A stretch of 64,000 nt of DNA from Dehalococcoidia bacterium (GCA_965204885.1 OZ242019.1:1127327-1191326); one strand, 5' to 3'. Shown: positions 5,140 to 47,400, counted from the stretch's first letter. Translations and numbers: made by a program. The notes: generated from the sequence alone by a model not told the origin.

Positions 5140-5215
5140 ACCCTTCGACAGGCTCAGGGTGACCGGAGGTGGAGGGGCTCAGGGTTCTGGATTCCCGCGA
5201 AAGCGGGAATGACGT
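5140..5215. repeat. dispersed repeat family copy (module cccttcgacaggctcagggtga + hairpin attcccgcgaaagcgggaatgac)
   Basis: The same motifs recur at 44862-44890 and 47272-47400; related hairpin at 37839-37943. Confidence 0.55.
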
Positions 5216-5222
5216 AACTGAT

Positions 5223-5951
5223 CTAGGGCGAGACGGGGAAGGAGGTGACGGTGATGGAGCGTTCGCCGTCCGGGTCTGAGAGCTCTACGATGGAGGACAG
5301 GCCCACCCACGTTGGAGAGCCGGGGTAGTAGGCGACCACATCGCCCTCGCTGATGTTCATGTGCGCGTCCCAGTGGCCCAGCGCGACATAGTCGCGCCCA
5401 CAGGCGGCGATCTCCTCCGGGAAGATGGGGTATGAACGGCCGGCGTCTGCCTGGTCTCGAACATAGTGGCCGTGCCCGATGGCGATCTGCCACGGCTCCG
5501 GCCCGGGCGGGGGCGGCTCCTTGAGCGGGTAGAGCGAGACGTCGTCGTAGCTGATGTGCGGCTTGCCCCATACGGCGAGGCCGAGTTCAGGGTATGTGAC
5601 GGTTTCGCCCTCGGGGTCCTTGATCAGGTAGACATTGGGCGTGCGGCCCTCAAGGTCCATGCGCCAGTAGACGGAGTTGTTCTCGAGCGGATCGTGATTG
5701 CCGGGCAGGATGACCGTCGGCATCGGCAGGCGTTCCAACTGCTCCATCACATAGTCGGCCACGTCCGCCCGGATGCGGTTGTGGTCGAAGAAATCACCCG
5801 CGATGAGGACGGCGTCCACCTTCTCCTCAAGGGCGCGATCCACCACGATCTTGAACGCGTGCAGGCATTTGCGCGGCTGCGGCGACCACCGTTCCGTGAA
5901 CGCGCCGATATGCACGTCAGATGTATGGAGAATCCGTATATCTCTGGACAT
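5223..5951 (-). CDS. metallophosphoesterase (calcineurin-like phosphoesterase)
   Basis: LHTSDVHIG...GDFFDH...GNHD...GHGH motifs. Confidence 0.75.
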   Translation of the reverse strand: MSRDIRILHTSDVHIGAFTERWSPQPRKCLHAFKIVVDRALEEKVDAVLIAGDFFDHNRIRADVADYVMEQLERLPMPTVILPGNHDPLENNSVYWRMDLEGRTPNVYLIKDPEGETVTYPELGLAVWGKPHISYDDVSLYPLKEPPPPGPEPWQIAIGHGHYVRDQADAGRSYPIFPEEIAACGRDYVALGHWDAHMNISEGDVVAYYPGSPTWVGLSSIVELSDPDGERSITVTSFPVSP

Positions 5952-6000
5952 CTTTTGTCGGCGTGAAGGCGTTAGTGTTCGGTCTGATTATCGTTTGAGT

Positions 6001-6087
6001 GGTGCCGGGGGAGGGACTCGAACCCACACTCCTTTTTGGGGAAGCGGATTTTAAGTCCGCCGCGTCTGCCATTCCGCCACCCCGGCA
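6001..6087 (-). tRNA. tRNA-Leu (anticodon TAA)
   Basis: Reverse complement gives GCCGGGG acceptor, anticodon loop CTTAAAA, long variable arm, GGTTCGAGTCC T-arm, CCA encoded. Confidence 0.85.
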
Positions 6088-6155
6088 CGTGATTCTGCTC
6101 ACATAACCGGGGAGTCCCGTCGGTGTAGTTGTCCATCCCTGTCACCGTGGGCGAC

Positions 6156-6419
6156 TCAGGCAGCCTGCGCCCTGTTCAACAGGCGGACGAGGCGGCTCTT
6201 GCGCCGATCTGCGTTCCTGCCGTGCAGCGTCTTGCCCTTCGCGCGGTCCAGGGCGACCATGGCGCGGCGCACGGTGTCCGGCGCATCCTGCGCTCCGTCC
6301 TCGATGGACTCACGCGCGCGGCGGATCAGCGTCCTGATTGTTCGATTCCGGTGGCGATTCACGTCGCGCTTCCTGAGAGAGCGCCTATGCGCCTTCGCCG
6401 CCGAGATTCCCTTTGCCAC
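6156..6419 (-). CDS. rpsT: 30S ribosomal protein S20
   Basis: 87 aa basic protein MAKGISAAKAHRRSLRKRDVNRHRNRTIRTLIRRA, typical of S20. Confidence 0.85.
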   Translation of the reverse strand: MAKGISAAKAHRRSLRKRDVNRHRNRTIRTLIRRARESIEDGAQDAPDTVRRAMVALDRAKGKTLHGRNADRRKSRLVRLLNRAQAA

Positions 6420-6448
6420 GTCCTGCTACTCCTCTGTATCCCTTGCTC

Positions 6449-8797
6449 TTACTTCTTGTCTTTTGACTGCTCTTTTGCCGTACCGCTAGCGCGAGCGGCT
6501 TTTCCGCTTTGCTGTCCGGCGCTGCGGCCGCGAGCGATGTGAGTCGATGTCCGATACACGTTGAAGACGCCCGGCAGATCCTCCAAACGGGATATCATCC
6601 GGCTGATTTCCGGAAGGCCGCTTGCCTCAACCGTGAGCGTTATCGTAACTGTGCCGTCCGCGTTGTGTCTATCTCGCACCCCTGTGATGTTGATGTGATC
6701 CGCCGAGACCAGCGTCGTAATATCCCGCAAGAGCCCCACACGATCCTGTGACGAAATAACGACACCGGACGGGTATTTCTGCTCGAAATCCGGCCAGGTC
6801 ACGTCCATGAGGCGCTCTGGCTCGTCCTCGTTCAGCATGTTCGTGCAGTTGCGCCGATGCACGGAAAGACCGCGATTACGGGTGATGAATCCGACGATCT
6901 CCTCGCCCGGCATCGGGCGGCAGCACGGGGCTGACCGCGCCGGCGTTGGGCCGAGTCCCTGCACGATGACCGAAAGCTCGCCACTGGACGGTCGAAGCTG
7001 GATCGTTTCCGGCTCTTCCTTTGGCGGCTGAAGCCGGACCGCAATCTGGTTGACGCCGACTTGTCCCGTTCCAAGCGCGAGGATGAATTCATCCGCCGTT
7101 TGGTAGCCGAAGAGCGTCGCCAAATGCTGCGGGTCAAGCTGCACGCCAAGCCGCCGCGCCTCCCGTTCCAGAAGCTGTCGGCCACGCGCCGTGCTTTCTG
7201 AACGCTCCTGAACACGGAACCAGTGGCGAATCTTGGATCGCGCCAACTCCGTGCGCACGTAGCCGAGATCCGGGTTCAGCCAGTCAAGGCTCGGCCCCTT
7301 TGGGCTCTTGGACGGGATGATCTCGACCGTGTCGCCGTTCTTGAGCGTGTAGCTCAACGAGACCATGCGGCCATTGACTTTCGCTCCGGCGGTTCCATAG
7401 CCGACATCCGTGTGAATGCGGAAGGCGAAGTCGATGGGTGTGGAGCCTGCCGGCAATTCTCGAATCTCGCCCCTTGGCGTGTAGACATAAACCTGGTCGA
7501 CAAGAATCTCGTGCTTCAGCTGGTCGACGAATTCCTGCGCGCCGATCACGTCACGCTGCCAGTCCAGAAGCTGCCGCAGCCACGCGATGCGCTCATCGAA
7601 CTCGCCGCCCGCCGCGCCCTCCTTGTAACGCCAGTGCGCCGCGATGCCGTATTCCGCCATCTCGTGCATGTCCGCGGTGCGTATCTGCACCTCCAGCATG
7701 TTGCCGTCCGGCGTCACCACCGTCGTGTGCAGCGATTGATAGCCGGTTTCGCGCGGGTTGGCGATGTAGTCGTCAAATTGGCCGGGCAGGGGGCGCCACA
7801 TGCCGTGGATGATGCCGAGCACGCCGTAGCAGTCCTGGACGTCCTTCACAACTACGCGGACGGCTTGCAGGTCATTGATGTCCTCAAAATCCCGCCCAAT
7901 CTCGCGGTAGCGCTCCATCTTCTGGGCGATGCTGTAGATGCTCTTTGTCCTGCCGGAAATCTCAATGTCTTTGTATCCCTGCGCCGTGAGCGTCTCCCGC
8001 AGAGCCGTCAGCGCCTCGCTGACTCCCGTCTCGAGCTCCGTCAGCCGCACGGCAACCAGGTCCGCAACACGTCGATGCCGCGCAGGCTCAAGGTGGATGA
8101 ACGCGAGGTCATTGAGTTCCGACTCGATGCTGTCGATTCCAAGCCGATGGGCGAGCGGGGCGTAGATATCCCGGGTTTCCAGGGCGATGCGGTGACGCCG
8201 ATCCGGCGCGAGGGCGTCAAGCGTCCGCATGTTGTGGAGGCGGTCGGCCAGCTTGATGAGGACGACGCGGACATCCTGCGCCATGGCGAGCAGCATCTTG
8301 CGGAGGCTCTCGGCCTGGTAAACGCTGGCCTGTGACGGGAAGGCGGCCGCCTCACCGCCTGTGCCCTGCTGCGGCTGCGCCGCGAGGCGAGACAGCTTCG
8401 TGACGCCGTCCACGAGTTCGGCGATCTCCGCGCCGAAACCCTTTCGCATCTCATCGAGCGTCATGGGCGAGTCTTCGACGACGTCATGCAGGAGCGCGGC
8501 CTGCAACGTTGGCGCGTCCAGCATTTCGATGTCCGTCAGGATGAGCGCGGTCTCAAGCGGGTGGCAGATATACGGGTCGCCGGACTTGCGGAACTGACCG
8601 TCGTGGGCGCGCTCAGCCGTATCAAACGCCTCACGGATGGCATCGATGCGCTCCGGCGGGAGCCGATGCGCCTTCAGGCGCGCTTCAAGCTCGTCGAACG
8701 CGACGCGCGCGAAACCAGCTCCTGCGCTGCCGTCGGTCGTCAGAGCCGGGGCATCCGCAGAGGCATCATCGTCTATAGCGGAATTCGCGCCAGTCAT
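6449..8797 (-). CDS. rel: bifunctional (p)ppGpp synthetase/hydrolase, RelA/SpoT family
   Basis: HD hydrolase motif (LLHDVVEDS), RelA_SpoT synthetase region, and TGS and ACT-like C-terminal regions; 782 aa. Confidence 0.9.
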   Translation of the reverse strand: MTGANSAIDDDASADAPALTTDGSAGAGFARVAFDELEARLKAHRLPPERIDAIREAFDTAERAHDGQFRKSGDPYICHPLETALILTDIEMLDAPTLQAALLHDVVEDSPMTLDEMRKGFGAEIAELVDGVTKLSRLAAQPQQGTGGEAAAFPSQASVYQAESLRKMLLAMAQDVRVVLIKLADRLHNMRTLDALAPDRRHRIALETRDIYAPLAHRLGIDSIESELNDLAFIHLEPARHRRVADLVAVRLTELETGVSEALTALRETLTAQGYKDIEISGRTKSIYSIAQKMERYREIGRDFEDINDLQAVRVVVKDVQDCYGVLGIIHGMWRPLPGQFDDYIANPRETGYQSLHTTVVTPDGNMLEVQIRTADMHEMAEYGIAAHWRYKEGAAGGEFDERIAWLRQLLDWQRDVIGAQEFVDQLKHEILVDQVYVYTPRGEIRELPAGSTPIDFAFRIHTDVGYGTAGAKVNGRMVSLSYTLKNGDTVEIIPSKSPKGPSLDWLNPDLGYVRTELARSKIRHWFRVQERSESTARGRQLLEREARRLGVQLDPQHLATLFGYQTADEFILALGTGQVGVNQIAVRLQPPKEEPETIQLRPSSGELSVIVQGLGPTPARSAPCCRPMPGEEIVGFITRNRGLSVHRRNCTNMLNEDEPERLMDVTWPDFEQKYPSGVVISSQDRVGLLRDITTLVSADHINITGVRDRHNADGTVTITLTVEASGLPEISRMISRLEDLPGVFNVYRTSTHIARGRSAGQQSGKAARASGTAKEQSKDKK

Positions 8798-8882
8798 TAT
8801 CGGTATAGTTTACCGCTTTATGGCTAGTTATCCGCTTAGGTGGGGGGAAGGAGAAAAGCGGCGTGCCTATGCAAAGGGCGGT

Positions 8883-10838
8883 TCAAGAGGCTGCGTCCAA
8901 GGTTTCGCCAAGTATTTCTTTCAGTACATACCGTTTGAATGCGTCAACACTTGTGAAGCAGCGGTAACCGGCGCTTGCGCCAACAGAGAGTGTCTCAATC
9001 CCTTCATCAAGCAGAACCGCAACAGGTTGGCTCAAGCCCTCTTGTAGGCCATTTGGCCATGCCAAATCGAATATCGCTAGTGGAGAGTCGTTTTCGGGGT
9101 CAGTGTAATCAAATCCCATTTCGCCATGTGCGAGCCCGTGAGATTCCACCCAGTCATTGAGGTTCACTAGCTCAGCCTCCTCGTCCGAGCTAGCAATCTC
9201 GCCCGGAACCTCAATCGGTTGGCTGGCCGACGGTTCCTGCGTTACCGGCGATGGCGTTGGCTCCGAACTCTCGGTGAGAGTGCTCATCAACTTATTAGTC
9301 TGGGCGGCCATTAGTTGTGCCCGCTCCTCGAGAAAGCCAGGATAATTGTCTAGGTGCCAAAGATTACGATTCGTAGGAATCCACTGTGATTCGAGTGCGC
9401 CGGGATGATTAGCGGCAACTTCTTCGAGATACTCCTGAGGATTACGATTGCTAATCTGCAGATTGCTGTCCTTTGTCAGGAAACAAAGATTGCCCAACGC
9501 ATTGACTTGGGCGCGCGAGTAACCGTGCTTATAGAGCAAGGATTTAGGAAATATGTGATGAACCTCAAGCTGATTCATTTTCCCAACATTGCCTTGCTTG
9601 AGAGGCAAACCGGTTCCCAAATCTCTACTGTCGGACATCCTCGTGAGCATATATAGAACGGGGTAAAACCTTGCGCCGAGCCCCAGACCTTCTGAAAAGT
9701 GCTGGGATTCGACTGTTGGACGATTCCAAATCCTGACACGTTCCACGAGTGACTCAAGCGGCGATTTGGTGTCATTGTCGAGTGTTGCCAGATCCTGCTC
9801 AAGCGATGTTTCTGTGTTGCCAGAGTACCGGCCCCACATACCAGCTTGGGCATAGTAGTAGAGCAGATTTCCTTGTTCGAGGGCATCCGGCGATTTATTG
9901 TATCGATCATAGAACCGTGCCATGACTGGCACTGCGTGGCGGGCAAAAAATACTCTGTCGTGATCCAGACCCAAGCGGCCATCAATCAATGCAATGATGG
10001 CATCAATTGACCTTACGGCTCTGCCAAGCCCATCCTTCACTTCTTCGGAAGACTTTTCGCTTAAATATCTGAAATCGGCTCGCCCGGTAAGGATGGAGTT
10101 GATCGACCGAAGAAGCCATACAAGGTCGAAATAGTAGCCTTTTTTATTCCACTCATCCAGTGCGTCCTTCATTCTTTCTCTAGCCTCGGGCCAACCGGCG
10201 CATATCTTCGCTAGTGCCAGATCGCCTTTAGAGAGCTTGGTGCCACCACTGTTCACGCGGTTGAAAATATCGACCACAATATCAAGATCAAGATCTTTGC
10301 TCGCCATTATCTCTATTGGCAACTCGACCTCCCGAATCCCCAAGAGGCGACTCAGACGGCCATAGATTTCAGATGTCCGAAGAGTGTCGTTCTCCGGTAA
10401 GTCAACGTGGTCGAGGTAGCTAGACCCTGCACGCATAACGTCCGTGACGTTTACCCAGAGCGGATCGTCGCGCATTCTTATCGCTTGATAAAACTCGAAC
10501 CTCTCGGTACCAACGTGGAACATTAAACCAGTGAATGTTCTTTCATCGCCGTCAAAGAATCCAGGAGGTCCTCCCCTGACAACGCCATACAATGTCGTGA
10601 CTCGCTGCTGACCATCCAGCAACAACTGCACGACGCCCGGCGGGGGTGTATTTGAGCCTCGAAAGTCCGCAGTACTTGCGGATGTCTCCCAAATGAGCAA
10701 GCCTCCCACGGGATGCTTGCGATACAGTGAATCGAACAGACTTCTAACTTGTTCTCTGTTCCATACGTAACTTCGCTGAAACTTTGGCAGACTTATTTGC
10801 CCGCTGTCGACTCGGTCAAGGATTGTGGATATCTGCAC
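8883..10838 (-). CDS. GmrSD-family type IV restriction endonuclease (DUF262 + DUF1524) with extra C-terminal domain
   Basis: N-terminal LPKFQRSYVW...LLDGQQRVTTL (DUF262/ParB-like) and EVHHIFPKS (DUF1524 His-Me finger); P/S/E-rich linker then ~100 aa tail with FDLAWPNG...VAVLLDEG; AT-rich. Confidence 0.8.
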   Translation of the reverse strand: MQISTILDRVDSGQISLPKFQRSYVWNREQVRSLFDSLYRKHPVGGLLIWETSASTADFRGSNTPPPGVVQLLLDGQQRVTTLYGVVRGGPPGFFDGDERTFTGLMFHVGTERFEFYQAIRMRDDPLWVNVTDVMRAGSSYLDHVDLPENDTLRTSEIYGRLSRLLGIREVELPIEIMASKDLDLDIVVDIFNRVNSGGTKLSKGDLALAKICAGWPEARERMKDALDEWNKKGYYFDLVWLLRSINSILTGRADFRYLSEKSSEEVKDGLGRAVRSIDAIIALIDGRLGLDHDRVFFARHAVPVMARFYDRYNKSPDALEQGNLLYYYAQAGMWGRYSGNTETSLEQDLATLDNDTKSPLESLVERVRIWNRPTVESQHFSEGLGLGARFYPVLYMLTRMSDSRDLGTGLPLKQGNVGKMNQLEVHHIFPKSLLYKHGYSRAQVNALGNLCFLTKDSNLQISNRNPQEYLEEVAANHPGALESQWIPTNRNLWHLDNYPGFLEERAQLMAAQTNKLMSTLTESSEPTPSPVTQEPSASQPIEVPGEIASSDEEAELVNLNDWVESHGLAHGEMGFDYTDPENDSPLAIFDLAWPNGLQEGLSQPVAVLLDEGIETLSVGASAGYRCFTSVDAFKRYVLKEILGETLDAAS

Positions 10839-11040
10839 GTATTCTGGTCTCCTTGATAGGCATCATGTTAGTAGATAGCGACAACCTGACTCAGCCTAAC
10901 ACGATGGTGGCTCAGCACGGAATGATGCCTAAGCAGTTTCGATTTCAGACTCTACGTGCTCCCGCAGCCGCCGCGATGTACTCATCCCAGAGGCGAGTTT
11001 CTTCTGTGGTGGTCATTGTTGAACTCCTACTTCTGGACGC

Positions 11041-29554: not shown

Positions 29555-30745
29555 ATGGATGGGGCCCGGGGAATCAAGCCAATGGTTGATGGAAAAGCGC
29601 GTGGAATTTTACGTGTACTGCTCATCGCCATGTCCGTCTTTGTGATGGCCTTCATCGCCTGCGGGGAGCCGCTCCCCACTTTCACACCCGTCGCCACTCC
29701 CACTGAAACCCCCGGCCCATCGCCAACACCGTCCCCGACAGAAACAGCCACCCCATCCCCCACCCGCACCGCCGTACCGACAGCCACGCAAGTGCCACCT
29801 CCGCCCACACCGACGGGAACACCCGTACCCACACCGACGCTGGTTCCATTCAATGACAGGGCGGCGCTAGAAGCACTCTACCATGCGACCGACGGCGACA
29901 ATTGGGTCCGCAATGACAACTGGTTAACTGATGCTCCTCTTGGTGAATGGTACGGCGTGACGACCAATGAGGAGGGGCGGGCTACCCACTTGGTTCTCCA
30001 TGAGAACCTGCTTAGCGGAGAGATACCGGTGGAACTTGGCTTATTGGCAGAACTCAGAAGATTGTCGTTCAACGCGAATACGTTGGGTGGAGAGATACCG
30101 GCGGAACTCGGCAATCTGTCTAACCTTGAAATTTTAAATCTCAGCATCAACAAGTTGAGTGGAGGGATTTCACCGGAACTGGGTGATCTTACGTCCGTTA
30201 GGTGGTTGACACTTGCGAATAACGAACTAAGTGGAGGGATTCCAGCCGACTTTGGCAACCTATCCAGCCTTGAAGGATTGGATCTCGCTTACAACCTGTT
30301 GAGCGACGAGATTCCAGCCGAACTGGGTAAACTGTCCAACCTAGAATACTTGCGGCTAAGCTTCAATCAATTGAGCGGTAATATACCACCAGAAATGGGC
30401 AATTTGTCCAACCTTGAAAATGTCCAGATCAGGGGCAACCAATTGAGCGGCGCTATTCCTGCAGAACTTGGCAACCTGTCCAATCTTAAGTCTCTACATC
30501 TCCCACAAAATGATTTGAGTGGTGAGATACCGCCGGAACTGGGTAGGTTGCCCACCCTTGAAAGTTTACATCTCTATGATAACCGGCTCAGTGGCATGAT
30601 ACCGCCGGAACTGGGTGATTTGACGTTGAAAGGGATATCCCTCTGGGGCAATCGGCTAGTGGGATGTATTCCCGCTGACTTGCGAGGCGTCCCGTCCAAC
30701 GATTTTGAGGCGCTTCAGCTACCATTCTGTCAAGATGCCCAGTGA
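29555..30745 (+). CDS. leucine-rich-repeat lipoprotein with plant-type 24-residue LRRs
   Basis: Lipobox FIAC; Pro/Thr-rich linker; about 10 repeats of LxxLxxLxLxxNxLSGxIPxELGN; 72-bp periodicity visible in the DNA. Confidence 0.75.
   Translation: MDGARGIKPMVDGKARGILRVLLIAMSVFVMAFIACGEPLPTFTPVATPTETPGPSPTPSPTETATPSPTRTAVPTATQVPPPPTPTGTPVPTPTLVPFNDRAALEALYHATDGDNWVRNDNWLTDAPLGEWYGVTTNEEGRATHLVLHENLLSGEIPVELGLLAELRRLSFNANTLGGEIPAELGNLSNLEILNLSINKLSGGISPELGDLTSVRWLTLANNELSGGIPADFGNLSSLEGLDLAYNLLSDEIPAELGKLSNLEYLRLSFNQLSGNIPPEMGNLSNLENVQIRGNQLSGAIPAELGNLSNLKSLHLPQNDLSGEIPPELGRLPTLESLHLYDNRLSGMIPPELGDLTLKGISLWGNRLVGCIPADLRGVPSNDFEALQLPFCQDAQ
29990..30700 (+). repeat. 72-bp tandem coding repeats (LRR units) inside the LRR gene
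   Basis: Recurring ...ctgtccaaccttgaa...caattgagcgg...ataccgccggaactgggt... units. Confidence 0.6.
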
Positions 30746-30815: not shown

Positions 30816-30956
30816 ATGAAAGCAGTCCAGATTAGTGAGCACGGCGGGCCGGAGGTGCTGGAATTCACGGACGTTGATGATCCGATCGCGGGGCCGGGCG
30901 CGGCCGTTGTTCAACTCGCTGCCTCCGGCGCGACGATTTCCACGTCACTGTTGTAG
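30816..30956 (+). pseudogene. 5' fragment (46 codons) of a quinone oxidoreductase gene: duplicated copy of the start of the qor gene at 31799
   Basis: About 125 bp (~30800-30925) are ~88% identical to 31786-31908, including RBS and ATG; the frame terminates after 46 codons. Confidence 0.5.
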
Positions 30957-31798: not shown

Positions 31799-32767
31799 AT
31801 GAAAGCAGTCCAGATCAACGAGTATGGCGGGCCGGAGGTGCTGGAATTCACGGATGTTGATGATCCGGTCGCGGGGCCGGGCGAGGCCGTTGTTCAACTC
31901 GCCGCCTCCGGCATCAACTACATGGATGTGTATGGCCGCACCGGGCTTTACGGGCAGGGCCCGCTGCCGACGATCCTCGGCGGCGAGGGCGCGGGCACAG
32001 TTGTTGAGATTGGGTCGGACGTGGCGACGCCGTCGGTTGGTGATGTTGTCGCTTATACGGGCGCGTCGCGCTCGTACGCGGAGCGCGTTGTTGTTCCGGC
32101 GGATCGACTCATCGTACTGCCGCAGGGGATCACAGCGGAGCAGGGCGCGGCGGCGATGCTGCAAGGCATGACGGCGCACTATCTGTCCCATTCCACGTAT
32201 CCGCTTAGCCCGGACGATACGGCGCTGGTTCACGCAGGCGCGGGCGGCGTGGGGCTGCTGCTGATCCAGATGGCCAAGATGCGCGGCGCAACGGTCATCA
32301 CGACGGTTTCGACGGAGGAGAAGGCGGAGCTTGCGCGAGAGGCGGGGGCAGACCATGTGGTTCTCTACACGCGGGAGGATTTCCAGGAGGCCGTGATGCG
32401 CATCACGGACGGCGCGGGCTGCCAGGTGGCCTACGATTCCGTCGGCGCGACGACATACGAGGGCTCGATGGCCAGCCTTGCGATTCGTGGATGCCTGGTC
32501 ATGTACGGCCAATCCAGCGGCGTGGTGCCGCCGATCGCGCCGCTGGCGTTGAACGCAAAGTCGCTGTTCCTGACGAGGCCGTCGTTGTTCAACTACACGC
32601 TCACAAGAGATGAACTGGAGTGGCGGGCAGGCGACGTGCTGGGCTGGATCGCGGACGGGAAGCTGTCGCTGCGGATCACAGAGCGATTCCCTCTGCAGGA
32701 TGCCGCTGAAGCGCATCGGCGACTTGAATCCCGCCAAACCACCGGCAAGCTGCTGCTGATTCCATAG
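31799..32767 (+). CDS. qor: NADPH:quinone oxidoreductase (zinc-type alcohol dehydrogenase superfamily)
   Basis: MKAVQINEYGGPEVL...; Rossmann motif AGAGGVG; 322 aa. Confidence 0.85.
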   Translation: MKAVQINEYGGPEVLEFTDVDDPVAGPGEAVVQLAASGINYMDVYGRTGLYGQGPLPTILGGEGAGTVVEIGSDVATPSVGDVVAYTGASRSYAERVVVPADRLIVLPQGITAEQGAAAMLQGMTAHYLSHSTYPLSPDDTALVHAGAGGVGLLLIQMAKMRGATVITTVSTEEKAELAREAGADHVVLYTREDFQEAVMRITDGAGCQVAYDSVGATTYEGSMASLAIRGCLVMYGQSSGVVPPIAPLALNAKSLFLTRPSLFNYTLTRDELEWRAGDVLGWIADGKLSLRITERFPLQDAAEAHRRLESRQTTGKLLLIP

Positions 32768-32851
32768 ACGCTCTTGAAAGAATCCGCTCCCTTTTTGGGG
32801 AGGGGATGTGGATTCCCGTGTCAAGCACGGGAATGACGTGAAAGTGGCGGC

Positions 32852-33394
32852 ATGACGACAGAGGAACTCATCATCTCGGCGGCGCGCATAGCGGGGGCGT
32901 TGCTTGTCCTGCGATGGGCCTCTGCCGGCTCCATCGCCGCCATCCTGATCGACTTCTCGGACCTGTTCATGATGAACCTGCTCGATCTGGGCGGCGTTCG
33001 CAACTACCAGGCACTCGATAAATGGCTCGACCTTGTCTATATGGTGACGTTCCTGTGGGTGGCCCTGAGGTGGGAGGGCCCACCGCGCGCCATCGCGATT
33101 GGGCTGTTCGCCTTTCGCATCGTTGGGGTCCTTGTGTTTGAGGTTATCGGCGAGAGGTGGGTGCTGCTGTTCTTCCCCAATGTCTTCGAGTTCTGGTTTG
33201 TCTTCGTGGCGGGGGCGATGCTATTCGCACCGGGTTATGAGTTGACGTGGCGGCGTTCAGTCCTGTGGCTGATTCCACTCACGGCGCTCAAGGAGTTCCA
33301 GGAATACGCGCTGCACGGGGCGCGGTGGCTGGACAACTATGTGGCTGTGGATGTTGTCGTGGACGCGTGGAAGTGGGTGACGGGCGGAGAGTAG
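32852..33394 (+). CDS. hypothetical membrane protein
   Basis: Multiple hydrophobic helices; no known motif. Confidence 0.45.
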   Translation: MTTEELIISAARIAGALLVLRWASAGSIAAILIDFSDLFMMNLLDLGGVRNYQALDKWLDLVYMVTFLWVALRWEGPPRAIAIGLFAFRIVGVLVFEVIGERWVLLFFPNVFEFWFVFVAGAMLFAPGYELTWRRSVLWLIPLTALKEFQEYALHGARWLDNYVAVDVVVDAWKWVTGGE

Positions 33395-37204: not shown

Positions 37205-37846
37205 ATGCCCCCACGCATCCTGTTGGGATCGACGAACCCCGCCAAGATTGAGCGCCTCCGCGACTGCCTTGAAGGCCGGTCGTTTGATTTCATAACCGTC
37301 AATGAACTGCCGCCGCATGAGCCGCCGGAGGAGATAGGCGGCACGCACATTGAGATTGCCGAGGCAAAGGCCGTCGCTTGGGCGCAGATCAGCGGTGGAC
37401 TGGCAATCGCTTCCGACGGCGGCATCGATATTCCCGCGCTGGGCCCGAATTGGGACAGCCTGCTGACGCGACGTGCAGCGGGGCTTGAAGCGACAGACGA
37501 GGGACACATCGAGCATCTGCTAGCCCTGATGGCGCACCTAGAGACTGATGGGGAACGGGCGGTCACCAGACATGAAGCGATAGCGATCGCCGCCCCAGGC
37601 AGGCTTATTAGCTCATGGGAAACGGAGGGGCTGAAGGCCGTCCTACGCCGAGAACCTGTGGAGGCACGCATTGAAGGCTTCTGGCTCGCCCCACTTCTAC
37701 AGATTCCCCAATATGACAAGCCGTACACAGACCTAACCCCTGACGAACTGCGAGAAATCGGCGCGCCTTGGGCAACCCTCGCCGAGGACATTCAAACTTG
37801 GCTTACAGACGGGGGTTATGAGACGTTGCGCGATCTGTCATTCTGA
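37205..37846 (+). CDS. non-canonical purine NTP pyrophosphatase-like (Ham1/RdgB family) protein
   Basis: ILLGSTNPAKIERL...EEIGGTHIEIAEAKA...ASDGGIDIPALG match the Ham1 family pattern. Confidence 0.55.
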   Translation: MPPRILLGSTNPAKIERLRDCLEGRSFDFITVNELPPHEPPEEIGGTHIEIAEAKAVAWAQISGGLAIASDGGIDIPALGPNWDSLLTRRAAGLEATDEGHIEHLLALMAHLETDGERAVTRHEAIAIAAPGRLISSWETEGLKAVLRREPVEARIEGFWLAPLLQIPQYDKPYTDLTPDELREIGAPWATLAEDIQTWLTDGGYETLRDLSF

Positions 37847-37943
37847 GCGCAGCGAAGAATCTAAAGGCTCTATTTTCAAAGACAAGTTGGGCGGGTAATC
37901 AACTCTTTAGATTCTTCACTCCGCTATCGCTCCGTTCAGAATG
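37839..37943. repeat. long imperfect inverted repeat (MITE/REP-like; possible bidirectional terminator) related to the dispersed repeat family
   Basis: Arms gtcattctgagcgcagcgaagaatctaaag / ctttagattcttcactccgctatcgctccgttcagaatgac around a ~38-nt spacer, between convergent genes. Confidence 0.55.
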
Positions 37944-37960
37944 ACAATTGCGGACTCCGC

Positions 37961-39397: not shown

Positions 39398-39829
39398 ATG
39401 ACAGAGGGGCAGACGATACCCAAGCCGGTTCCGACGCCGGATCAGGTCACAGAGCCATTCTGGGAGGCCACCAAAGAGGGCAGGCTGATGATTCAGCGGT
39501 GCCGAACCTGTGGCAACCGCTTCTTCTATCCCCGTGAGCGCGATCCGAATTGCCTCTCCGATGACCTGGAGTGGATCACCACCAGCGGCAAAGGGCGCAT
39601 CTACAGCTTCATCGTGGTGCGCCAGCCCGGCCATCCCGGCTTCAACGACGACGTGCCGTACATCTATGCCGTCATCACGCTGGATGAGGATGTCCGCATG
39701 AACGGGAACGTCAAGGGCATCGACATTGAAGCCTGCGAGATCGATATGCCGGTGGAGGTCTACTTCGAGGAGCGCGGCGACCAGATGCTGCCGCAGTGGA
39801 AGCCTCTCGGGGCTGCGGATCCGTCCTAA
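39398..39829 (+). CDS. Zn-ribbon OB-fold protein (DUF35 family)
   Basis: CRTCGNRFFYPRERDPNC rubredoxin-like ribbon followed by OB-fold-type C-terminus. Confidence 0.6.
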   Translation: MTEGQTIPKPVPTPDQVTEPFWEATKEGRLMIQRCRTCGNRFFYPRERDPNCLSDDLEWITTSGKGRIYSFIVVRQPGHPGFNDDVPYIYAVITLDEDVRMNGNVKGIDIEACEIDMPVEVYFEERGDQMLPQWKPLGAADPS

Positions 39830-40368: not shown

Positions 40369-40391
40369 CTATCTTCGTTCGGTGAATGCGC

Positions 40392-41120: not shown

Positions 41121-41137
41121 CGGGCCGCCCCTTTTCC

Positions 41138-42133: not shown

Positions 42134-42225
42134 GATTATGCGCGTTCTCGCTGCCTTATGCTGACGGCGGGGCCGTTATGCCTTGCCGGTGTCCTTGCTC
42201 GTGCGGTTCGACTCAAAAAAGAAAC

Positions 42226-42304
42226 TGGCGACCCGGACGGGATTTGAACCCGTGATCTCTGCCGTGACAGGGCAGTATGTTAAGCCAGACTACACCACCG
42301 GGCC
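42226..42304 (-). tRNA. tRNA-Asp (GTC)
   Basis: Reverse complement: GGCCCGG acceptor, anticodon stem CTGCC/GGCAG with loop CTGTCAC, GGTTCAAATCC T-arm, CCA encoded. Confidence 0.8.
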
Positions 42305-42317
42305 GCGCTTGCTCATG

Positions 42318-43865
42318 CTACGAACGCGCCAATTCCGTGTCAAGGAGAGCGGACGCTGCCGCGCGCGTCCTTGACGTCGAGCGCTCCCGCCCGATTGCCT
42401 CGAGCGTGACGAAGAGGGGTGGGGCCGCCGTCCGCCCCGTCGTTGCGACACGGATCGCCCCGAACAGCTTGCGGCCGGACGTGCCAAGCTCCTCTACGAG
42501 CGCCCGGAATCGTGTTTCGATTGACTCATGATTCCACGGCTCGATCTTCTCAATGGCATTGGCGGCGGCGTTCAGCCATTCATGGACAACGTTCGCGTCC
42601 TCCGGCAACGGCACGCGCCAGAGGTCGTCGCCCGCGTCCGCCATCCGCTTCATCGCCTTGTCCCCCATGCCGGCCCAGATGAGCGCAGGCGGGAACGGGA
42701 CCTCATCCGTGAAGAAGAATTCGCATAGTTCCGGCATTTCACTCAGCACCCGGGCCCGGTCCTGCGTGAGCATGGCTGCCTGCCGCGCGAGTTGATCATC
42801 GAGCGGCCGCGGGATCTCGGGTGGCAGACCGTTATCCAAGTACGGGCGCGCCGCCTCCACGAACGCCTCCGGCCCCATCTCGCGGATATACACGCCGTTC
42901 AGCCATTCCAGCTTCTCGCGGTCGAACATCGCGGGCGATGCTGAGACACGGTCAAGCGAGAAACCCGCAATTAGCTCTTCTCGTGTCATCTGCGTGGTCT
43001 TGTCGTCGAGCGACCACCCAAGCAACGCCAGGAAATTCAACATCGCTTCGGGCAAAAACCCCTCATCGCGGTAGTCGAGCAGCGAGACGGAGCCGTGCCG
43101 CTTTGACAGCTTTGTCCGGTCTGAGCCGAGGATCAATGGCAGGTGCGCAAATGCGGGCGGCGTGTAGCCGAACGCTTCATAGATCATGGCGTGGCGCGGC
43201 GCAGATGACATCCACTCATCGCCACGGATTACATGCGTGATGGCCATGGCGACGTCATCAACCACGTTGGCGAGATGATACGTCGGGAAGCCGTCCGACT
43301 TGAGGATGACGAAATCGTCGATCAGCCGGTTCTCCCATGAAACGTCGCCGCGTATGACATCGTTGAACGTTGTGCGTCCGCTGAGCGGCGTCTTGAAGCG
43401 GACGACGCGGTGTTCACCGTTCTCGGCCTCTTCCCGCTCGCGCTCCTCCGCGCTCAGGTTGCGGCAGCGGCGGTCATAGCCTGTTGGCACGTTGCGCTTC
43501 TGCTGGGCGGCGCGGATGGCGTCCAGTCTTTCAGAGGTACAGTAGCAGTAGTAGGCGGCGTCCAATTCGACGAGTTTCTCCGCCGCCTCGCCGTAGCCCT
43601 CAAGGCGCTGGGACTGCACGTATGGCCCGTAGGGGCCACCGATGTCCGGCCCTTCATCCCATTCAATGCCGAGCCATCGGAGGGAATCGAGGATGCGTTC
43701 CTCGCTGCCCGGGATGCGCCGCTCCTGGTCGGTGTCCTCAATCCGTACCGCAAAAACGCCGCCCGTACTGCGCGCAAAGAGCCAGGCGAACAGCGCGCTC
43801 CGGATGTTGCCCACGTGCGGATCCCCCGTCGGGCTTGGCGCGTAGCGTGTTCGCGTCTCTGACAT
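42318..43865 (-). CDS. gltX: glutamate--tRNA ligase
   Basis: RYAPSPTGDPHVGNIRSALF (HIGH region), KLSKR motif. Confidence 0.9.
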   Translation of the reverse strand: MSETRTRYAPSPTGDPHVGNIRSALFAWLFARSTGGVFAVRIEDTDQERRIPGSEERILDSLRWLGIEWDEGPDIGGPYGPYVQSQRLEGYGEAAEKLVELDAAYYCYCTSERLDAIRAAQQKRNVPTGYDRRCRNLSAEEREREEAENGEHRVVRFKTPLSGRTTFNDVIRGDVSWENRLIDDFVILKSDGFPTYHLANVVDDVAMAITHVIRGDEWMSSAPRHAMIYEAFGYTPPAFAHLPLILGSDRTKLSKRHGSVSLLDYRDEGFLPEAMLNFLALLGWSLDDKTTQMTREELIAGFSLDRVSASPAMFDREKLEWLNGVYIREMGPEAFVEAARPYLDNGLPPEIPRPLDDQLARQAAMLTQDRARVLSEMPELCEFFFTDEVPFPPALIWAGMGDKAMKRMADAGDDLWRVPLPEDANVVHEWLNAAANAIEKIEPWNHESIETRFRALVEELGTSGRKLFGAIRVATTGRTAAPPLFVTLEAIGRERSTSRTRAAASALLDTELARS

Positions 43866-43877
43866 CGCAATCTCATT

Positions 43878-44831
43878 CTAACCCAGCGAATCGACGAGCC
43901 GCGCGTCCGGCGTTCCCGCCGTCAGCTCTGCTAGGCATTCCGAAAGGTCAGCTGCAAGGGGTGATCGAACCTCAACCGTTTCCCCGCTTGCAGGGTGCTT
44001 GAAAGTCAGCGAAAGCGCGTGCAGGAAGAGGCGCGGCACCGGATCGCGACTGCCGCGCGCGTAGATGACATCTCCGGCGACCGGATGTCTTAGCGACGCG
44101 AAATGAACGCGAATCTGGTGCAGCCGCCCAGTTTGCGGCCTCGCCTCCACCAGCGTATAGCCGCCTTTCAGGTGCGCCAGAACGCGGTACCGGGTTGTGG
44201 CAGGGCGGCCCGATACAACGACGGCCATTCGTTGTCGATGCCTCGGATCACGTCCCAGCGATGCCTCGATTACGCCGGTTGGCGGTTCCAGCAGCCCTCG
44301 CAGCAAGGCGACGTACACTTTCTCAACGCTGCGTGACTGGAACTGCCGCGAAAGCGCCGTGTGCGCCGCGTCGTTCTTCGCGATCAACATCACGCCGGAC
44401 GTGTCCTTGTCCAGCCGATGAACGATCCCCGGCCTGTCATCGCCCCCAATCGTTGAGAGCGGCCCCTGGCGACCCAACAGCGCGTTCACAATCGTTCCCG
44501 TCGGGTGGCCGGGTCCGGGATGGACAGCGACGCCGGGCGGCTTGTCGATTGCGAGAATCCCGTCATCCTCGTAGAGCACGGGCAGAGGGGAATGTTCGGC
44601 GGAGAGCCCTACTGCTTCCCCGGGTTCTATCGCGCCGGTAATCGTGATTTCGTCGCCGGGCTCGATGGCATGCCCACGCTTGCGCGGCACTTCCCCGTTG
44701 ACGCTGACCCGTTCATCCTGGATGAGCCGCCCGATCGCCGACCGTGAGATGTCGGCAGAGAGCGCGGCGGCCAGGTATCGATCAAGCCGCCTCTCAGATG
44801 TCTCAGGCGGGACGGTCAGACGAGTCTCCAT
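43878..44831 (-). CDS. rluD: RluA-family pseudouridine synthase (RluD-like)
   Basis: S4 domain and HRLDKDTSG catalytic motif; start at METRL; the ORF-track N-terminal extension is translation of a dispersed repeat. Confidence 0.8.
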   Translation of the reverse strand: METRLTVPPETSERRLDRYLAAALSADISRSAIGRLIQDERVSVNGEVPRKRGHAIEPGDEITITGAIEPGEAVGLSAEHSPLPVLYEDDGILAIDKPPGVAVHPGPGHPTGTIVNALLGRQGPLSTIGGDDRPGIVHRLDKDTSGVMLIAKNDAAHTALSRQFQSRSVEKVYVALLRGLLEPPTGVIEASLGRDPRHRQRMAVVVSGRPATTRYRVLAHLKGGYTLVEARPQTGRLHQIRVHFASLRHPVAGDVIYARGSRDPVPRLFLHALSLTFKHPASGETVEVRSPLAADLSECLAELTAGTPDARLVDSLG

Positions 44832-45420
44832 CCTCAGCCTTCTGTTCTTCCACCAGAGATTCGTCATTCCCGCGAAAGCGGGAATCCGGCATCCCCTCCG
44901 CCTCCTGCCTCTTCTCCGTTGCGCGATTCCGCAGCACATAGAAAGCCAGCGCGAACAGCCCGATTGTGAGCGCGGAATCCGCCACGTTGAACGTCGGGAA
45001 ATAGTAGTCGCTCCATACCTGCACGCTGATAAAGTCCACGACCGCGCCCCGGAAAAGGCGATCTGTCAGGTTGCCCAGCGCGCCACCCAACAGGAGGGCG
45101 AGGGAGTAACGCAGCAGGGCGCTCTCCCGCCCGTTCGCCCGGTAATAGAACAGCACGCCCAATACCCCGATGATGCTGACCAGGATCAGGAACTCTGTAT
45201 GGCCGCGCAACAGGCCGAACGCGCTCCCGGTGTTCGTTACATGGGTCAGCCGGAGCAGGCCGCTCTCGGGGATTGATTCATACAGGCGCAGATTGCTGAC
45301 GATCAGCAGCTTGGCTGCCTGGTCGGCAATGTAGATGATCAGCGTGACCGCGGCGAACGGCAGGAATTGGCCGCCGAATCCCCTCGACGCGGTTGGACGC
45401 GAGCCGCCGTCCTCTACCAC
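44803..45420 (-). CDS. lspA: lipoprotein signal peptidase (signal peptidase II)
   Basis: Four TM helices, conserved NxGAAF-like (NTGSAFG) and FNVAD motifs. Confidence 0.75.
   Translation of the reverse strand: MVEDGGSRPTASRGFGGQFLPFAAVTLIIYIADQAAKLLIVSNLRLYESIPESGLLRLTHVTNTGSAFGLLRGHTEFLILVSIIGVLGVLFYYRANGRESALLRYSLALLLGGALGNLTDRLFRGAVVDFISVQVWSDYYFPTFNVADSALTIGLFALAFYVLRNRATEKRQEAEGMPDSRFRGNDESLVEEQKAEDGDSSDRPA
44862..44890. repeat. dispersed repeat copy (hairpin cgtcattcccgcgaaagcgggaatccgg) inside the lspA 3' end / rluD 5' region
   Basis: Same palindrome as at 5193-5215; translated as ...FRGNDE... in the lspA tail. Confidence 0.55.
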
Positions 45421-46349
45421 CAGATCTTGCGCCCCATCTCGGCGTCGATCTCATCAAGCGGGCGCGTCCACAGGCCGGTGGACAGGTATTTCCAGCCGCC
45501 GTCCGCGAACAGGCAGACGATGTTGCCGTTGTCCATCCGCTCCGCCAGCCGCTGCGCGCATGCCAGCACCGCGCCGGATGAGATGCCCGCGAAGATGCTT
45601 TCCGTCTGCAACAGTTCCCGCGTCTTCTCGAACGATTCTCGTGAGGTAATGATGAACTGCCCGTCCAGCACGGTGGTGTCCAGGATTGGCGGGATAAAGC
45701 CGTCCTCCAGCGACCTCAGTCCCTGGATGCGCTCCTCCGGGTGCGGTACGACGGCGATGATTCGCGCGTCCGGGTTGTGCTCCTTGAGTCGCCGTCCAAC
45801 GCCCGTCAGCGTTCCGCCCGTGCCGAGACCGGCGACGAACGTATCCACTTCAGGCAGTTGTTGGATGATTTCCTCGCCTGTGCCGTCGTAGTGTGCGCGG
45901 GGATTCGCCTCGTTGCCGTACTGGTACAGCATCACGTACTTGTCAGGCTCTTTCTCGGCCATCTGCTGCGCGACCTCGATGGCCCCGTTGGTGCCGTGAC
46001 GGCCCTCGCTGAACACGACGTTCGCGCCGAAGGACTCAATCAGCGCCTGCCGTTCATCGGTTACGTTGTCCGGCAAGACGACGGTGACGTGATAGCCCTT
46101 GTAGCGCGCGACCATGGCGAGAGAGACGCCGGTGTTGCCGCTGGAGGGCTCGAGGATAATGCGGCCGTCGCCAAGCGTTCCGTCCGCCTCCGCGTTCTCC
46201 ACCATCAGCAGGGCGATGCGGTCCTTAACGCTGCCCGTCGGGTTCTGGCCTTCCAGCTTGGCAAAAAGGCGGACGCCCGGCTTGGGTTGAAGCCGTTTCA
46301 GTTCAACGAGGGGCGTATTGCCGATTGTGTCCAGTATGCTGCCGGTCAT
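45414..46349 (-). CDS. cysteine synthase (CysK/CysM family, PLP-dependent)
   Basis: GNTPLVEL...PTGSVKDR (PLP lysine) ...SSGNTG. Confidence 0.85.
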   Translation of the reverse strand: MTGSILDTIGNTPLVELKRLQPKPGVRLFAKLEGQNPTGSVKDRIALLMVENAEADGTLGDGRIILEPSSGNTGVSLAMVARYKGYHVTVVLPDNVTDERQALIESFGANVVFSEGRHGTNGAIEVAQQMAEKEPDKYVMLYQYGNEANPRAHYDGTGEEIIQQLPEVDTFVAGLGTGGTLTGVGRRLKEHNPDARIIAVVPHPEERIQGLRSLEDGFIPPILDTTVLDGQFIITSRESFEKTRELLQTESIFAGISSGAVLACAQRLAERMDNGNIVCLFADGGWKYLSTGLWTRPLDEIDAEMGRKIWW

Positions 46350-46402
46350 GTGCCTAGTTTATCGTGTTGCGGACAGCAGGCGGGCGGGAATGGCAGCGAG
46401 GG

Positions 46403-47233
46403 TCAGATCGCGATTTCTCGCAGATGTTCCTTGAGGTTCCTGGTCATGCTGCGCAGGGAGACTGCCGTAATGGATGCCGAAATGCCACCACCGGCAAGGG
46501 GAACCAGCTTGCTGATCCCTTTCGCGAACGAAGTCTTCGTCAGCCGCACGCCGATTGTGCGGAAGAGCGCGTACCTGAGAGGAATATAGAGCGGCGCAGC
46601 AGTCAGCCGGATCCTGGCGATGCGGTACGCGGCGTTTGACTTTGACGCCTCTGCAATCTCTTTCAAGCTGTCAGTCGCCTGGCGCACTCCGAAGACCGCG
46701 CCGACCAGCAGCCATATCCTGATCTCCGTTTCCTCATTCAGCTGCAGATCGCCGTCCTCGAACAGGTCGTCCCATCCGTACAGGTACATCAACTTCTGCG
46801 CGCATACCACCGCGTGCCAATTGAGTTGGGCAAGGTCCACCGGAAGCGTCGCCGCCATCAGCCATCCTCCCGGCAGCCCCGCCGCGAAGGAAACGCTGGA
46901 TGCCTTGACGATGTGCGACATGATGATGGCGTCGGCCATCCTGTCGAGCGTTTCCATGGGCACGCCGGCCGCCAGCGGCGTTGTCGCGATTGCCCGCCCG
47001 ACCTCGATGCTGTTCTGGGCGTAATGGCGATCCAGTTGTTTCCCCAAGAATGTTCTGCGGTCCACCTTCAATCCCGGGATAGCGGTCATCGCAGGCAGCA
47101 GACGCCGCAGAATGGGATGCGGGTCTCCGGCCCCGCCCTCGCCATTCCACTCACTGTCGTCGGCGCCGTCTTCCTCACGCGCCCGTGTTGGTGTATCGGT
47201 CACTCTTCTTCCCTCCGCGCTGTTCTCACTCAT
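46403..47233 (-). CDS. hypothetical protein (possibly EcsC-like)
   Basis: 276 aa, coding-like; no confident motif. Confidence 0.4.
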   Translation of the reverse strand: MSENSAEGRRVTDTPTRAREEDGADDSEWNGEGGAGDPHPILRRLLPAMTAIPGLKVDRRTFLGKQLDRHYAQNSIEVGRAIATTPLAAGVPMETLDRMADAIIMSHIVKASSVSFAAGLPGGWLMAATLPVDLAQLNWHAVVCAQKLMYLYGWDDLFEDGDLQLNEETEIRIWLLVGAVFGVRQATDSLKEIAEASKSNAAYRIARIRLTAAPLYIPLRYALFRTIGVRLTKTSFAKGISKLVPLAGGGISASITAVSLRSMTRNLKEHLREIAI

Positions 47234-47271
47234 TTAGTTTAACGTGCGAGTCACGCGCCTATTGGACAACA

Positions 47272-47400
47272 GAGCAGAACACGTCATTCCCGCTCGGCCT
47301 GCTTATCACCGCTTTAGATTCCTCGACTGCGCTCGGAATGACAGTGAGTATTCTACCCTTCGACAGGCTCAGGGTGAGCGGGTGTGGGCGCGAGCCGAGA
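47272..47400. repeat. dispersed repeat copy (gtcattcccgctcgg...cgctcggaatgac + cccttcgacaggctcagggtgagcgg)
   Basis: Shares both modules with 5140-5215 and the ctttagattc core with 37839-37943. Confidence 0.55.

Follow-up and report, generated by a model that had tools for sequence, protein, structure and literature searches.

Short palindromic modules, including hairpins of the Neisseria Transformation Sequence class, at gene ends of a Dehalococcoidia bacterium chromosome

The Neisseria Transformation Sequence (NTS), a 28-nt consensus (CGTCATTCCCGCGMAVGCGGGAATCYRG) with one mismatch allowed, was characterized by biochemistry and association statistics as the single-stranded-DNA target of the GIY-YIG nuclease SsnA (Chenal et al. 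2025, PMC11893778). The hairpin (NTS/dRS3) is described for Neisseria as well as for many further bacteria. The ssn gene is normally located between two inverted copies of the hairpin, NTS/SRM elements are enriched in host-associated bacteria, and in N. meningitidis 2% of the copies lie in frame within coding sequences (PMC11893778). The multiplication of NTS is given as a hypothesis only, even in this study (PMC11893778).

The window, i.e., the whole analyzed stretch of 64 kb from a Dehalococcoidia bacterium, contains four NTS-like hairpins, three copies of a second module (modC, GTCATTCTGAGCGCAGCGAAGAATC) and two copies of a third (modB; Table 1). Judged by its sequence, the main hairpin belongs to the NTS / Ssn-related-motif class and is a longer, oriented form of the Neisseria dRS3 repeat. 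Common to both are the identical 28-nt consensus, the ATTCCC-N8-GGGAAT core, the orienting CGTCAT / C-Y-R-G flanks, the formation of hairpins and, probably, the many dispersed copies clustered at gene ends. In contrast to the Neisseria system, the hosts belong to an uncultured Dehalococcoidia (Chloroflexota) lineage whose genomes measure 1.6-2.4 Mb, half of the window copies (two) are in frame within coding sequences compared with the 2% of N. meningitidis, one copy carries an inverted loop, the modC type coexists with the hairpin, and an ssn gene is missing from the window and from 25 lineage loci. Similar to the NIMEs of Neisseria and the enterobacterial BIMEs, short hairpin repeats and other modules are combined into variable intergenic mosaics, whereas neither modB nor modC-long is related to RS units in sequence, and each array is short, with two to three modules. 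The four places at which the initial annotation had reported repeats all hold what was described, and its proposal of a dispersed, REP-like palindromic repeat family is supported.

Table 1. Positions, strands and characteristics of the palindromic modules in the window
Feature	Sequence	Position	Strand	Context and scores
Diverged NTS-like hairpin	CCTCATTCCGGCGACAGCCGGAATCCAT	4639..4666	-	covariance model 44.2 bits; fold -9.0 kcal/mol
modB companion module	CCCTTCGACAGGCTCAGGGTGACCGG	5141..5166	+	20 nt from the 5187-5214 NTS-like hairpin; the pair is a mosaic array
NTS-like hairpin		5187..5214	- (strand by flanks)	covariance model 39.9 bits; DNA fold -8.6 kcal/mol, z -4.04
NTS/SRM-type hairpin	CGTCATTCCCGTGCTTGACACGGGAATCCAC	32808..32838	-	fits published SRM degenerate motif; covariance model 35.3 bits; fold -9.6 kcal/mol, z -4.27
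modC hairpin module, left arm of inverted doublet	GTCATTCTGAGCGCAGCGAAGAATCTAAAG	37837..37866	+	
Extended modC arm, right arm of doublet	GTCATTCTGAACGGAGCGATAGCGGAGTGAAGAATCTAAAG	37905..37945	-	
Canonical NTS hairpin	CGTCATTCCCGCGAAAGCGGGAATCCGG	44862..44889	+	28/28 vs NTS consensus; covariance model 49.2 bits; DNA fold -9.7 kcal/mol, z -2.95
60-nt modC-long unit	GTCATTCCGAGCGCAGTCGAGGAATCTAAAGCGGTGATAAGCAGGCCGAGCGGGAATGAC	47283..47342	-	spacer, ThiF to 276-aa gene
modB companion module	CCCTTCGACAGGCTCAGGGTGAGCGG	47356..47381	+	

The three NTS-like hairpins other than the canonical copy differ from the 28-nt consensus at at least three positions, with three mismatches in the 5187-5214 copy; relative to the canonical copy, the hairpins at 5187-5214 and 4639-4666 carry five and six mismatches, respectively. 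A 20-nt palindrome (ATTCCCGCGAAAGCGGGAAT) is exact at 5191-5210 and 44866-44885. It had been described as part of a perfect palindrome of 26 nt, yet this longer form turned out to be a composite, with GTCAT present on one side only (CGTCATTCCCGC....GCGGGAATCCRG). Since this holds for each real copy, the element is oriented. Shuffled sequences yielded 0.00 matches to the 26-mer at <=3 mismatches. In an alignment of 24 copies, the 5' TCAT and 3' TC flank bases never vary, and 97.9% of the stem is paired, with compensatory changes on both sides of two pairs. Most copies show a GAAA loop on the sense strand. Folding of the individual copies as DNA gave -8.6 to -9.7 kcal/mol (z about -3 to -4.3) for the NTS hairpins. 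The published SRM degenerate motif matched twice in the window, against 0.58 matches on average and at most 4 across 100 dinucleotide shuffles, which for 64 kb only is not significant alone.

Two of the hairpins, at 4639-4666 and 32808-32838, had been missed by the initial annotation. The former lies in frame within a coding sequence of 172-200 aa (codons PHSGDSRNPS), in a linker that is hypervariable across the protein family (370 homologues), and a compensatory change keeps the hairpin stem. The latter, with a 9-bp stem and a 5-nt loop, is situated in the spacer preceding the gene at 32852-33394. The 5187-5214 hairpin begins 8 nt past the stop codon of a Metallophos gene (5223-5951); its loop is inverted relative to the flanks (TTTC on the minus strand), and it does not fit the published SRM degenerate motif. 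In six independent cases, an NTS in sense orientation begins 2-9 nt past a stop codon.

The canonical copy is antisense to lspA, whose 3' tail it occupies in frame (codons PDSRFRGNDE); the rluD Shine-Dalgarno sequence follows 17 nt downstream. It had been assigned to the overlap of lspA and rluD; its location in the 3' coding region of lspA was verified, but it is outside the real overlap of 29 nt, because it lies 31 nt upstream of the true rluD start, the ATG at 44831. The N-terminal extension of rluD is spurious, as suggested earlier, with the relatives' RluD called at 317 aa from METRL. Hairpins lying in frame in linkers and supplying stop codons explain spurious annotations, among them this extension and odd peptides such as DSRFRGNDE, IPAFAGMT, and SLRSE. 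The idea that such elements are tolerated inside coding-sequence ends was borne out by the two in-frame copies, both residing in hypervariable linkers. In LspA, the hairpin codons are limited to a sub-clade, other relatives having an unrelated linker of 36 residues or none, and conservation of the peptide DSRFRGNDE does not extend to more distant relatives, which supports the initial annotation on this point. The hairpin represents the replacement of part of the linker, with junctions at short similarities, rather than a clean insertion. LspA alleles of 194 aa (L123, L146) were rejected as a clean “empty site”; they do not set insertion boundaries, because the whole linker is missing.

The modC hairpin shares the design of NTS (GTCATTC-stem-loop-stem-GAATC) and is likewise associated with ssn elsewhere; its copies score weakly with the NTS covariance model (E 0.0026 for the modC-long unit). 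The Ham1/RdgB gene (37205-37846) takes its final codons and its TGA stop from the left arm of the doublet, and the convergent spacer separating rdgB from an endoIII-like gene is filled by the two arms together. As a unit (37834-37948) the arms fold at -25.4 kcal/mol (z -5.85), and doublets of a short and a long arm are also present in three related loci (L131, L136, L141). The reported sharing of a ctttagattc core between this inverted repeat and the 47.3-kb copy was reproduced, the core being located at 37857-37866, 37905-37914, and 47312-47321. The orthologous modC-long unit is present in L130, L131, L133, and L141 and absent from L124-L127 and L143. The hairpin and its companion had been stated to recur together at 5140-5215 and 47272-47400; modB occurs at both sites, whereas the hairpin is absent at 47.3 kb, where only an 11-nt hairpin half (GTCATTCCCGC) bounds the 60-nt unit of a different module. 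For modB, CCTTCGACAGGCTCAGGGTGA is exact at 5142-5162 and 47357-47377 versus 0.01 matches expected, within a shared block of 33 nt at 91% identity. As a hairpin modB is not convincing (DNA folding, z about -0.4), and the genes between inverted modB pairs in IMG/VR are ordinary phage genes that belong to no consistent partner family. Literature string searches for modB and modC returned unrelated primer matches only.

Extension of the comparison to 20 related Dehalococcoidia MAG loci (383 kb) revealed 31 matches to the NTS covariance model at E < 1e-6, a recurrence of ~1 per 12 kb that extrapolates to perhaps ~100-150 copies per genome. Genomes sharing only 67-90% LspA identity carry copies with 0-2 mismatches at non-orthologous sites, and orthologous copies are conserved far better than their flanks. 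Exact matches to each module were found in ~90 to >120 IMG/VR contigs as well as in named replicons of Pseudomonadota, Cyanobacteria, Bacteroidota, and Acidobacteriota, with the modC type occurring in the last three. Scans against Rfam at gathering and permissive thresholds returned tRNAs and one chance snoRNA match only, with no family fitting the repeats. Thus, the repeat family is real but not special to this Dehalococcoidia bacterium genome: the designation “genome-specific” had to be abandoned, because the lspA-tail copy equals the Neisseria NTS consensus and each of the three modules is spread over numerous unrelated contigs and phyla.

Among 22 ssn loci in IMG/VR, nearly every ssn gene is accompanied by NTS(+) upstream and NTS(-) downstream, and in one case (L228/L380) an ssn homologue has modC on its flanks instead. 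No ssn/GIY-YIG gene was retrieved in the window or the 25 lineage loci (~0.48 Mb, largely one syntenic region) by a GIY-YIG regex, by tblastn with two real Ssn proteins or by an HMM from 120 Ssn homologues, while regex and HMM recovered ssn in the IMG/VR control loci. Database searches with NTS-type and modC-type Ssn gave no lineage-chromosome protein among the best 120 matches listed.

As a whole explanation, the window repeats are probably short pan-bacterial palindromic modules in small mosaic arrays at gene ends, with an NTS-class hairpin targeted by an Ssn-type nuclease. Directly established in this respect are the NTS sequence identity, the hairpin potential, the orienting flanks, the non-orthologous placement, the turnover at hot spots, and the flanking of ssn by NTS or modC in other contigs. 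By analogy to Neisseria, the hairpins would extrude in single-stranded DNA, where Ssn, a small single-domain GIY-YIG nuclease (cd10448), would bind them and cut a few bases upstream. The window copies would represent non-autonomous relics or targets of an ssn unit encoded elsewhere in the chromosome; this genome would accordingly be expected to possess an ssn gene, and Ssn or another ssDNA process may have spread the copies. Local side effects may comprise the supply of stop and tail codons and a hairpin positioned just 5' of the rluD ribosome-binding site. Against this explanation speak the lack of ssn in the window, in the 25 lineage loci and among the 120 best matches listed, the SRM motif count that is not significant alone, the inverted loop of the 5187-5214 copy, the unconvincing modB hairpin and its lack of a consistent partner gene, and the replacement of linker sequence instead of a clean insertion at the lspA site.

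Mobilization of the repeats as REP/REPIN elements by a RAYT (IS200/IS605-type Y1 transposase) encoded elsewhere, with the modC doublet as replicative REPIN unit, appears quite unlikely. It would agree with the long hairpin formed by the inverted doublet, with the lack of target-site duplications and with the intergenic, clustered, BIME-like mosaic placement, and both systems combine non-autonomous copies with a single-copy gene that has the repeats on its flanks. However, REPs reportedly begin with a GTAG-type tetranucleotide, whereas the copies described here start with CGTCAT or GTCATTC. Moreover, the hairpin equals NTS, for which Ssn has been demonstrated as the partner; in IMG/VR loci, NTS and modC flank the gene of this GIY-YIG nuclease and not that of a Y1 transposase, and no transposase adjoins any copy among the genes scanned beside the elements. 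The initial classification as MITE was not supported: the terminal inverted ends (GTCATTC...GAATGAC), the length of 60-110 bp and the capability to contribute stop codons or coding tails resemble the Correia element, but no target-site duplication flanks 37837-37945, 47283-47342 or any NTS copy, and neither a nearby transposase nor a related DDE insertion sequence was found.

Host-selected structures acting on the RNA level (3'-end stabilizers, terminators, or translational-coupling hairpins), retained because of their function instead of being DNA that is mobile or targeted by a nuclease, would account for the six sites just past stop codons, the GAAA loop on the sense strand, the strong conservation of orthologous copies and the proximity of the lspA copy to the rluD Shine-Dalgarno sequence. 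This is nevertheless unlikely in view of identical sequences across phyla and in phage contigs, placement within coding sequences and in either orientation with respect to transcription, the replacement of different modules by one another at the same site, and the absence of an Rfam match. Furthermore, no T-run as in intrinsic terminators follows any copy, the sequences after the hairpins being CCGGCATCC, GTAACTGAT (+) or CCAGAACCC (-), and CCACATCC. That an IS110/Piv-type recombinase or a filamentous phage uses the repeats for attachment or as targets is suggested by dRS3, reported as a phage recombinase target (PMC11893778), yet very unlikely here: neither in the window nor in the lineage loci does an IS110-type gene or a prophage adjoin a copy, and such a role would leave the multiplication of the hairpins themselves unexplained. 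Chance similarity or an assembly artefact, for which only the shortness of the motifs speaks, has a practically negligible probability and is refuted by shuffles giving 0.00-0.01 expected matches and by copies lying within conserved synteny in numerous independent MAGs, long-read chromosomes among them.

With the preferred reading of NTS-class hairpins targeted by an Ssn-type nuclease, the repeats do not reveal a new kind of system, but they add an uncultured Chloroflexota lineage, for which many near-complete genomes exist, to the range of a class whose partner enzyme has been known only since 2025. A more speculative and rather improbable proposal would be that in these small Dehalococcoidia genomes NTS, modC, modB, and others are interchangeable cassettes, written into the same few sites (typically 2-9 nt after a stop codon, or disordered protein linkers) by templated, microhomology-guided ssDNA replacement rather than cut-and-paste, possibly without a resident ssn. 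If this were true, intermediate alleles (L125, the window, L146) would allow a stepwise reconstruction of the long-unknown spread of dRS3/NTS. The modB(+)/NTS(-) arrangement of the array at 5141-5214 recurs in L132 and L134. Hot spots that are polymorphic among close relatives lend themselves to working out the way in which such repeats spread; three hot spots, the lspA tail, the region downstream of rdgB and the ThiF spacer, hold different modules in different relatives. At the ThiF spacer, L128 carries modB at the same position as the window.

The repeats described by the initial annotation were present in the window sequence at all four of its places. The recurrent palindrome (20 nt, ATTCCCGCGAAAGCGGGAAT) stood, while the perfect 26-mer given for the hairpin is a composite, since the real copies are asymmetric, CGTCAT flanking one end and CCRG the opposite one; it matches both palindrome places with three mismatches each (none in shuffles). 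The companion module modB (CCTTCGACAGGCTCAGGGTGA) is exact at two places with an expectation of 0.01, within a common block of 33 nt at 91% identity, and the second hairpin module, modC, reads GTCATTCYGAGCGCAG(Y)CGARGAATCTAAAG. Two hairpin copies had been overlooked, and a covariance model for the hairpin, built on 24 lineage copies including all four from the window, found exactly these four there (coordinates are compiled in the table below).

Chenal et al. 2025 (PMC11893778) described the 28-nt Neisseria Transformation Sequence (NTS; CGTCATTCCCGCGMAVGCGGGAATCYRG), a longer, oriented form of dRS3 (ATTCCC-N8-GGGAAT). According to that paper the 94-aa GIY-YIG protein SsnA binds NTS only when single-stranded and on one strand only, cutting a few bases upstream of it; similar hairpins, named “Ssn-related motifs” (SRM), flank ssn genes across phyla, and for the multiplication of NTS copies a hypothesis only is given. 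The copy in lspA is identical to the NTS consensus at 28 of 28 positions. Scanning with the degenerate SRM motif gave two window matches against 0.58 expected in shuffles, alone not significant. The copy at 5187-5214 fails this motif; it combines minus-strand NTS flanks with a plus-strand GAAA loop, so that loop and flanks have opposite orientations. For every copy a DNA hairpin of 8–9 bp is predicted (-8.6 to -9.7 kcal/mol, z -3 to -4.3). Over the 24 aligned copies the stem is paired at 97.9%, with both sides changed in two pairs, and the flanking bases TCAT and TC are invariant. The loop-closing sequence GCGAAAGC reportedly forms an unusually stable DNA mini-hairpin (Hirao and colleagues). 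No Rfam family matched any of the elements, and modB showed no significant fold.

The repeats had been read as a genome-specific MITE/REP-like family. Exact matches to the NTS 20-mer and to a 19-nt core of modB, each in at least 120 IMG/VR contigs, and to modC in 92 contradict the genome specificity, as do named plasmid and chromid records of other bacteria: NTS-like matches in Neisseria, Azospirillum, sphingomonads, Aeromonas, Photobacterium, and Francisella, modC in Calothrix, Planktothrix, Oscillatoria, Hymenobacter, Phocaeicola, and Granulicella, and modB in Moraxella, sphingomonads, Sinorhizobium, and Comamonas. The MITE assignment is not supported either; the element belongs to a known pan-bacterial class, and REP-like is in broad terms a correct description. 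The hairpin is a new member, in a new lineage, of an already known repeat class, made modestly interesting by its in-frame copies, the swapping of modules at hot spots and the regular spacing just after stop codons. No transposase was found among the genes adjoining the elements, which are ordinary ones encoding, among others, a Metallophos phosphoesterase, Ham1/RdgB, an endonuclease III-like protein, ThiF, and a PALP enzyme.

A profile HMM of Ssn homologues, run over every locus fetched by then, detected four ssn genes, all at IMG/VR loci. One (L031) has NTS copies on its flanks, two (L038, L090) have diverged NTS-like copies nearby with 4–6 mismatches, and the fourth (L228) has three flanking modC copies; modC also lies at the ssn gene of L380, which represents the same locus as L228. 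In a protein-guided scan yielding 22 usable ssn loci, nearly all carried a (C/T)GTCAT-stem-loop-stem-CCAG hairpin on the plus strand directly upstream and an inverted copy directly downstream, with stem sequences differing among loci. Although it departs from the published SRM motif, modC is best read as another Ssn-type hairpin, given its position beside ssn and the weak scores of its copies against the NTS model (E values of 0.0026 and 0.019). An ssn gene was absent from the window and the lineage loci searched, and among the best 120 matches of two Ssn database searches none came from lineage chromosomes. The search for a partner gene of modB gave no consistent one.

In 20 loci from related MAGs (383 kb) the NTS model gave 31 matches at E <1e-6, approximately one per 12 kb. 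NTS, modC, and modB, with 0–2 mismatches, recur there at numerous non-orthologous sites; LspA identity in the genomes concerned is only 67–90%. Orthologous hairpins are conserved far better than their own flanks. Fixed side-by-side arrangements, modB(+)/NTS(-) and modC(-)/modB(+), are frequent, and three hot spots host varying modules: the lspA tail, the region downstream of rdgB, and the ThiF spacer. Longer tandem arrays of composite units in relatives show that mosaics can amplify locally.

The lspA-rluD-gltX surroundings are syntenic in relatives, where RluD is called with 317 aa beginning METRL. This bears out the earlier view that the N-terminal extension of rluD is spurious: the equivalent start in the window is the ATG at 44831, overlapping lspA by 29 nt, and the 353-aa ORF containing IPAFAGMT is an artefact of the hairpin being open in that frame. 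The extreme LspA tail (EEQKAEDGDSSDRPA), which contains the rluD Shine-Dalgarno sequence and first codons, is nearly invariant at DNA level, and the hairpin sits in a variable linker immediately upstream of it. In L125 the hairpin is followed by a retained 3' half of the ancestral linker, with junctions at short similarities (ancestral GCCGGAA... and ...GAGAACGAC versus CCGGATT... and ...GGGAATGACG of NTS); from this type the window allele would be derivable by a deletion between two GAATGACG repeats. Inferred as they are, these allele steps make clear that the hairpin was not acquired by simple insertion with a target duplication. The second in-frame copy (4639-4666, codons PHSGDSRNPS) likewise lies within a hypervariable linker of its protein family.

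Positions of repeat modules and further features in the window and in loci (L) of related MAGs
Feature	Position	Strand	Remark
Palindrome ATTCCCGCGAAAGCGGGAAT	window 5191-5210; 44866-44885		
NTS-like	window 4639-4666		diverged; overlooked
NTS-like	window 5187-5214		
NTS-like	window 32808-32838		SRM match; overlooked
NTS-like	window 44862-44889		SRM match
modB	window 5142-5162; 47357-47377		
modC	window 37837-37866	+	
modC	window 37905-37945	-	internal insertion
modC	window 47312-47342	-	part of 60-nt modC-long unit
lspA tail	window, L124-L127, L147		NTS
lspA tail	L137:10547-10571		modC, not NTS; supplies last codons and stop (LspA end DSSLRSE)
lspA tail	L123, L146		nothing
lspA tail	most other relatives		unrelated 36-residue acidic linker
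Downstream of rdgB	window, L136, L141		modC doublet
Downstream of rdgB	L133		NTS
Downstream of rdgB	L143		NTS + modC
Downstream of rdgB	L126		modC + modB
ThiF spacer	window		modB + modC-long unit, replacing native hairpin kept in L124-L127
ThiF spacer	L128		modB at same point
ThiF spacer	L130, L131, L141		modC doublet; absent from L143 (same 90% LspA cluster)
NTS after stop codon	window 5187-5214; L125:1374; L132:4330 and 11433; L133:19840; L137:19421	sense	
Tandem arrays	L138:15950-16710; L140:7270-7900 and 10720-10870		NTS-like + modC, and NTS + CCGTAACGCCAAC-containing block
GC-rich hairpin CCTTCCCTCTTGACGGGGGAAGG	window 53519-53541		ArgS-SBP spacer
Leucine-rich-repeat protein	window 29555-30745		72-nt tandem repeats, 30011-30626
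tRNA-Arg(TCG)	window 50911-50990		longer; poor score (31 bits)
tRNA-Arg(TCG)	window 51394-51470		
GmrSD gene	window 49036-50496; 50493-50810		two ORFs
114-nt direct repeat	window 30816-30929; 31799-31912		92% identity
Paralogous genes	window 791-1921; 2020-3153		~376 aa each

At six independent sites NTS starts 2–9 nt past a long ORF's stop codon, positions that rest on crude ORF calling, and follows a C-rich tract such as CCCCTG or CCCCTC. Such placement could reflect target preference or selection. In the ArgS-SBP spacer of four relatives (L125, L128, L134, L136) NTS lies 6–7 nt past the stop codon; exactly there the window has a different, GC-rich hairpin. This hairpin, together with the related peptides PLPEGEG/PLPQGGEG ending LspA of two relatives (P0024, P0051), shows that the lineage has at least one further repeat family.

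An LspA scan of the genome collection returned only uncultured Dehalococcoidia MAGs, several being complete chromosomes of 1.6–2.4 Mb. Host association of the organisms, possibly with sponges, is suggested by MAG names (APA_bin_32 and SB0661_bin_39, for example) and by the leucine-rich-repeat protein, which is of a eukaryote-like type consistent with this lifestyle.

Two tRNA-Arg(TCG) genes, 483 nt apart and 98% identical over 51 nt, adjoin a lower-GC stretch at 48–52 kb (GC 0.55) encoding an MvaI/BcnI-like endonuclease and GmrSD. The relatives L121 and L122 differ in this segment, apparently a variable defence islet at a tRNA. The 114-nt direct repeat, in a GC-poor stretch within or beside a 637-aa LppX/LprAFG-like ORF, could indicate either tandem lipoprotein paralogues or an ORF that was mis-joined. 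The adjacent paralogous genes near the window start show a repeat spacing of 1232 nt, with blocks at 70–77% DNA identity.
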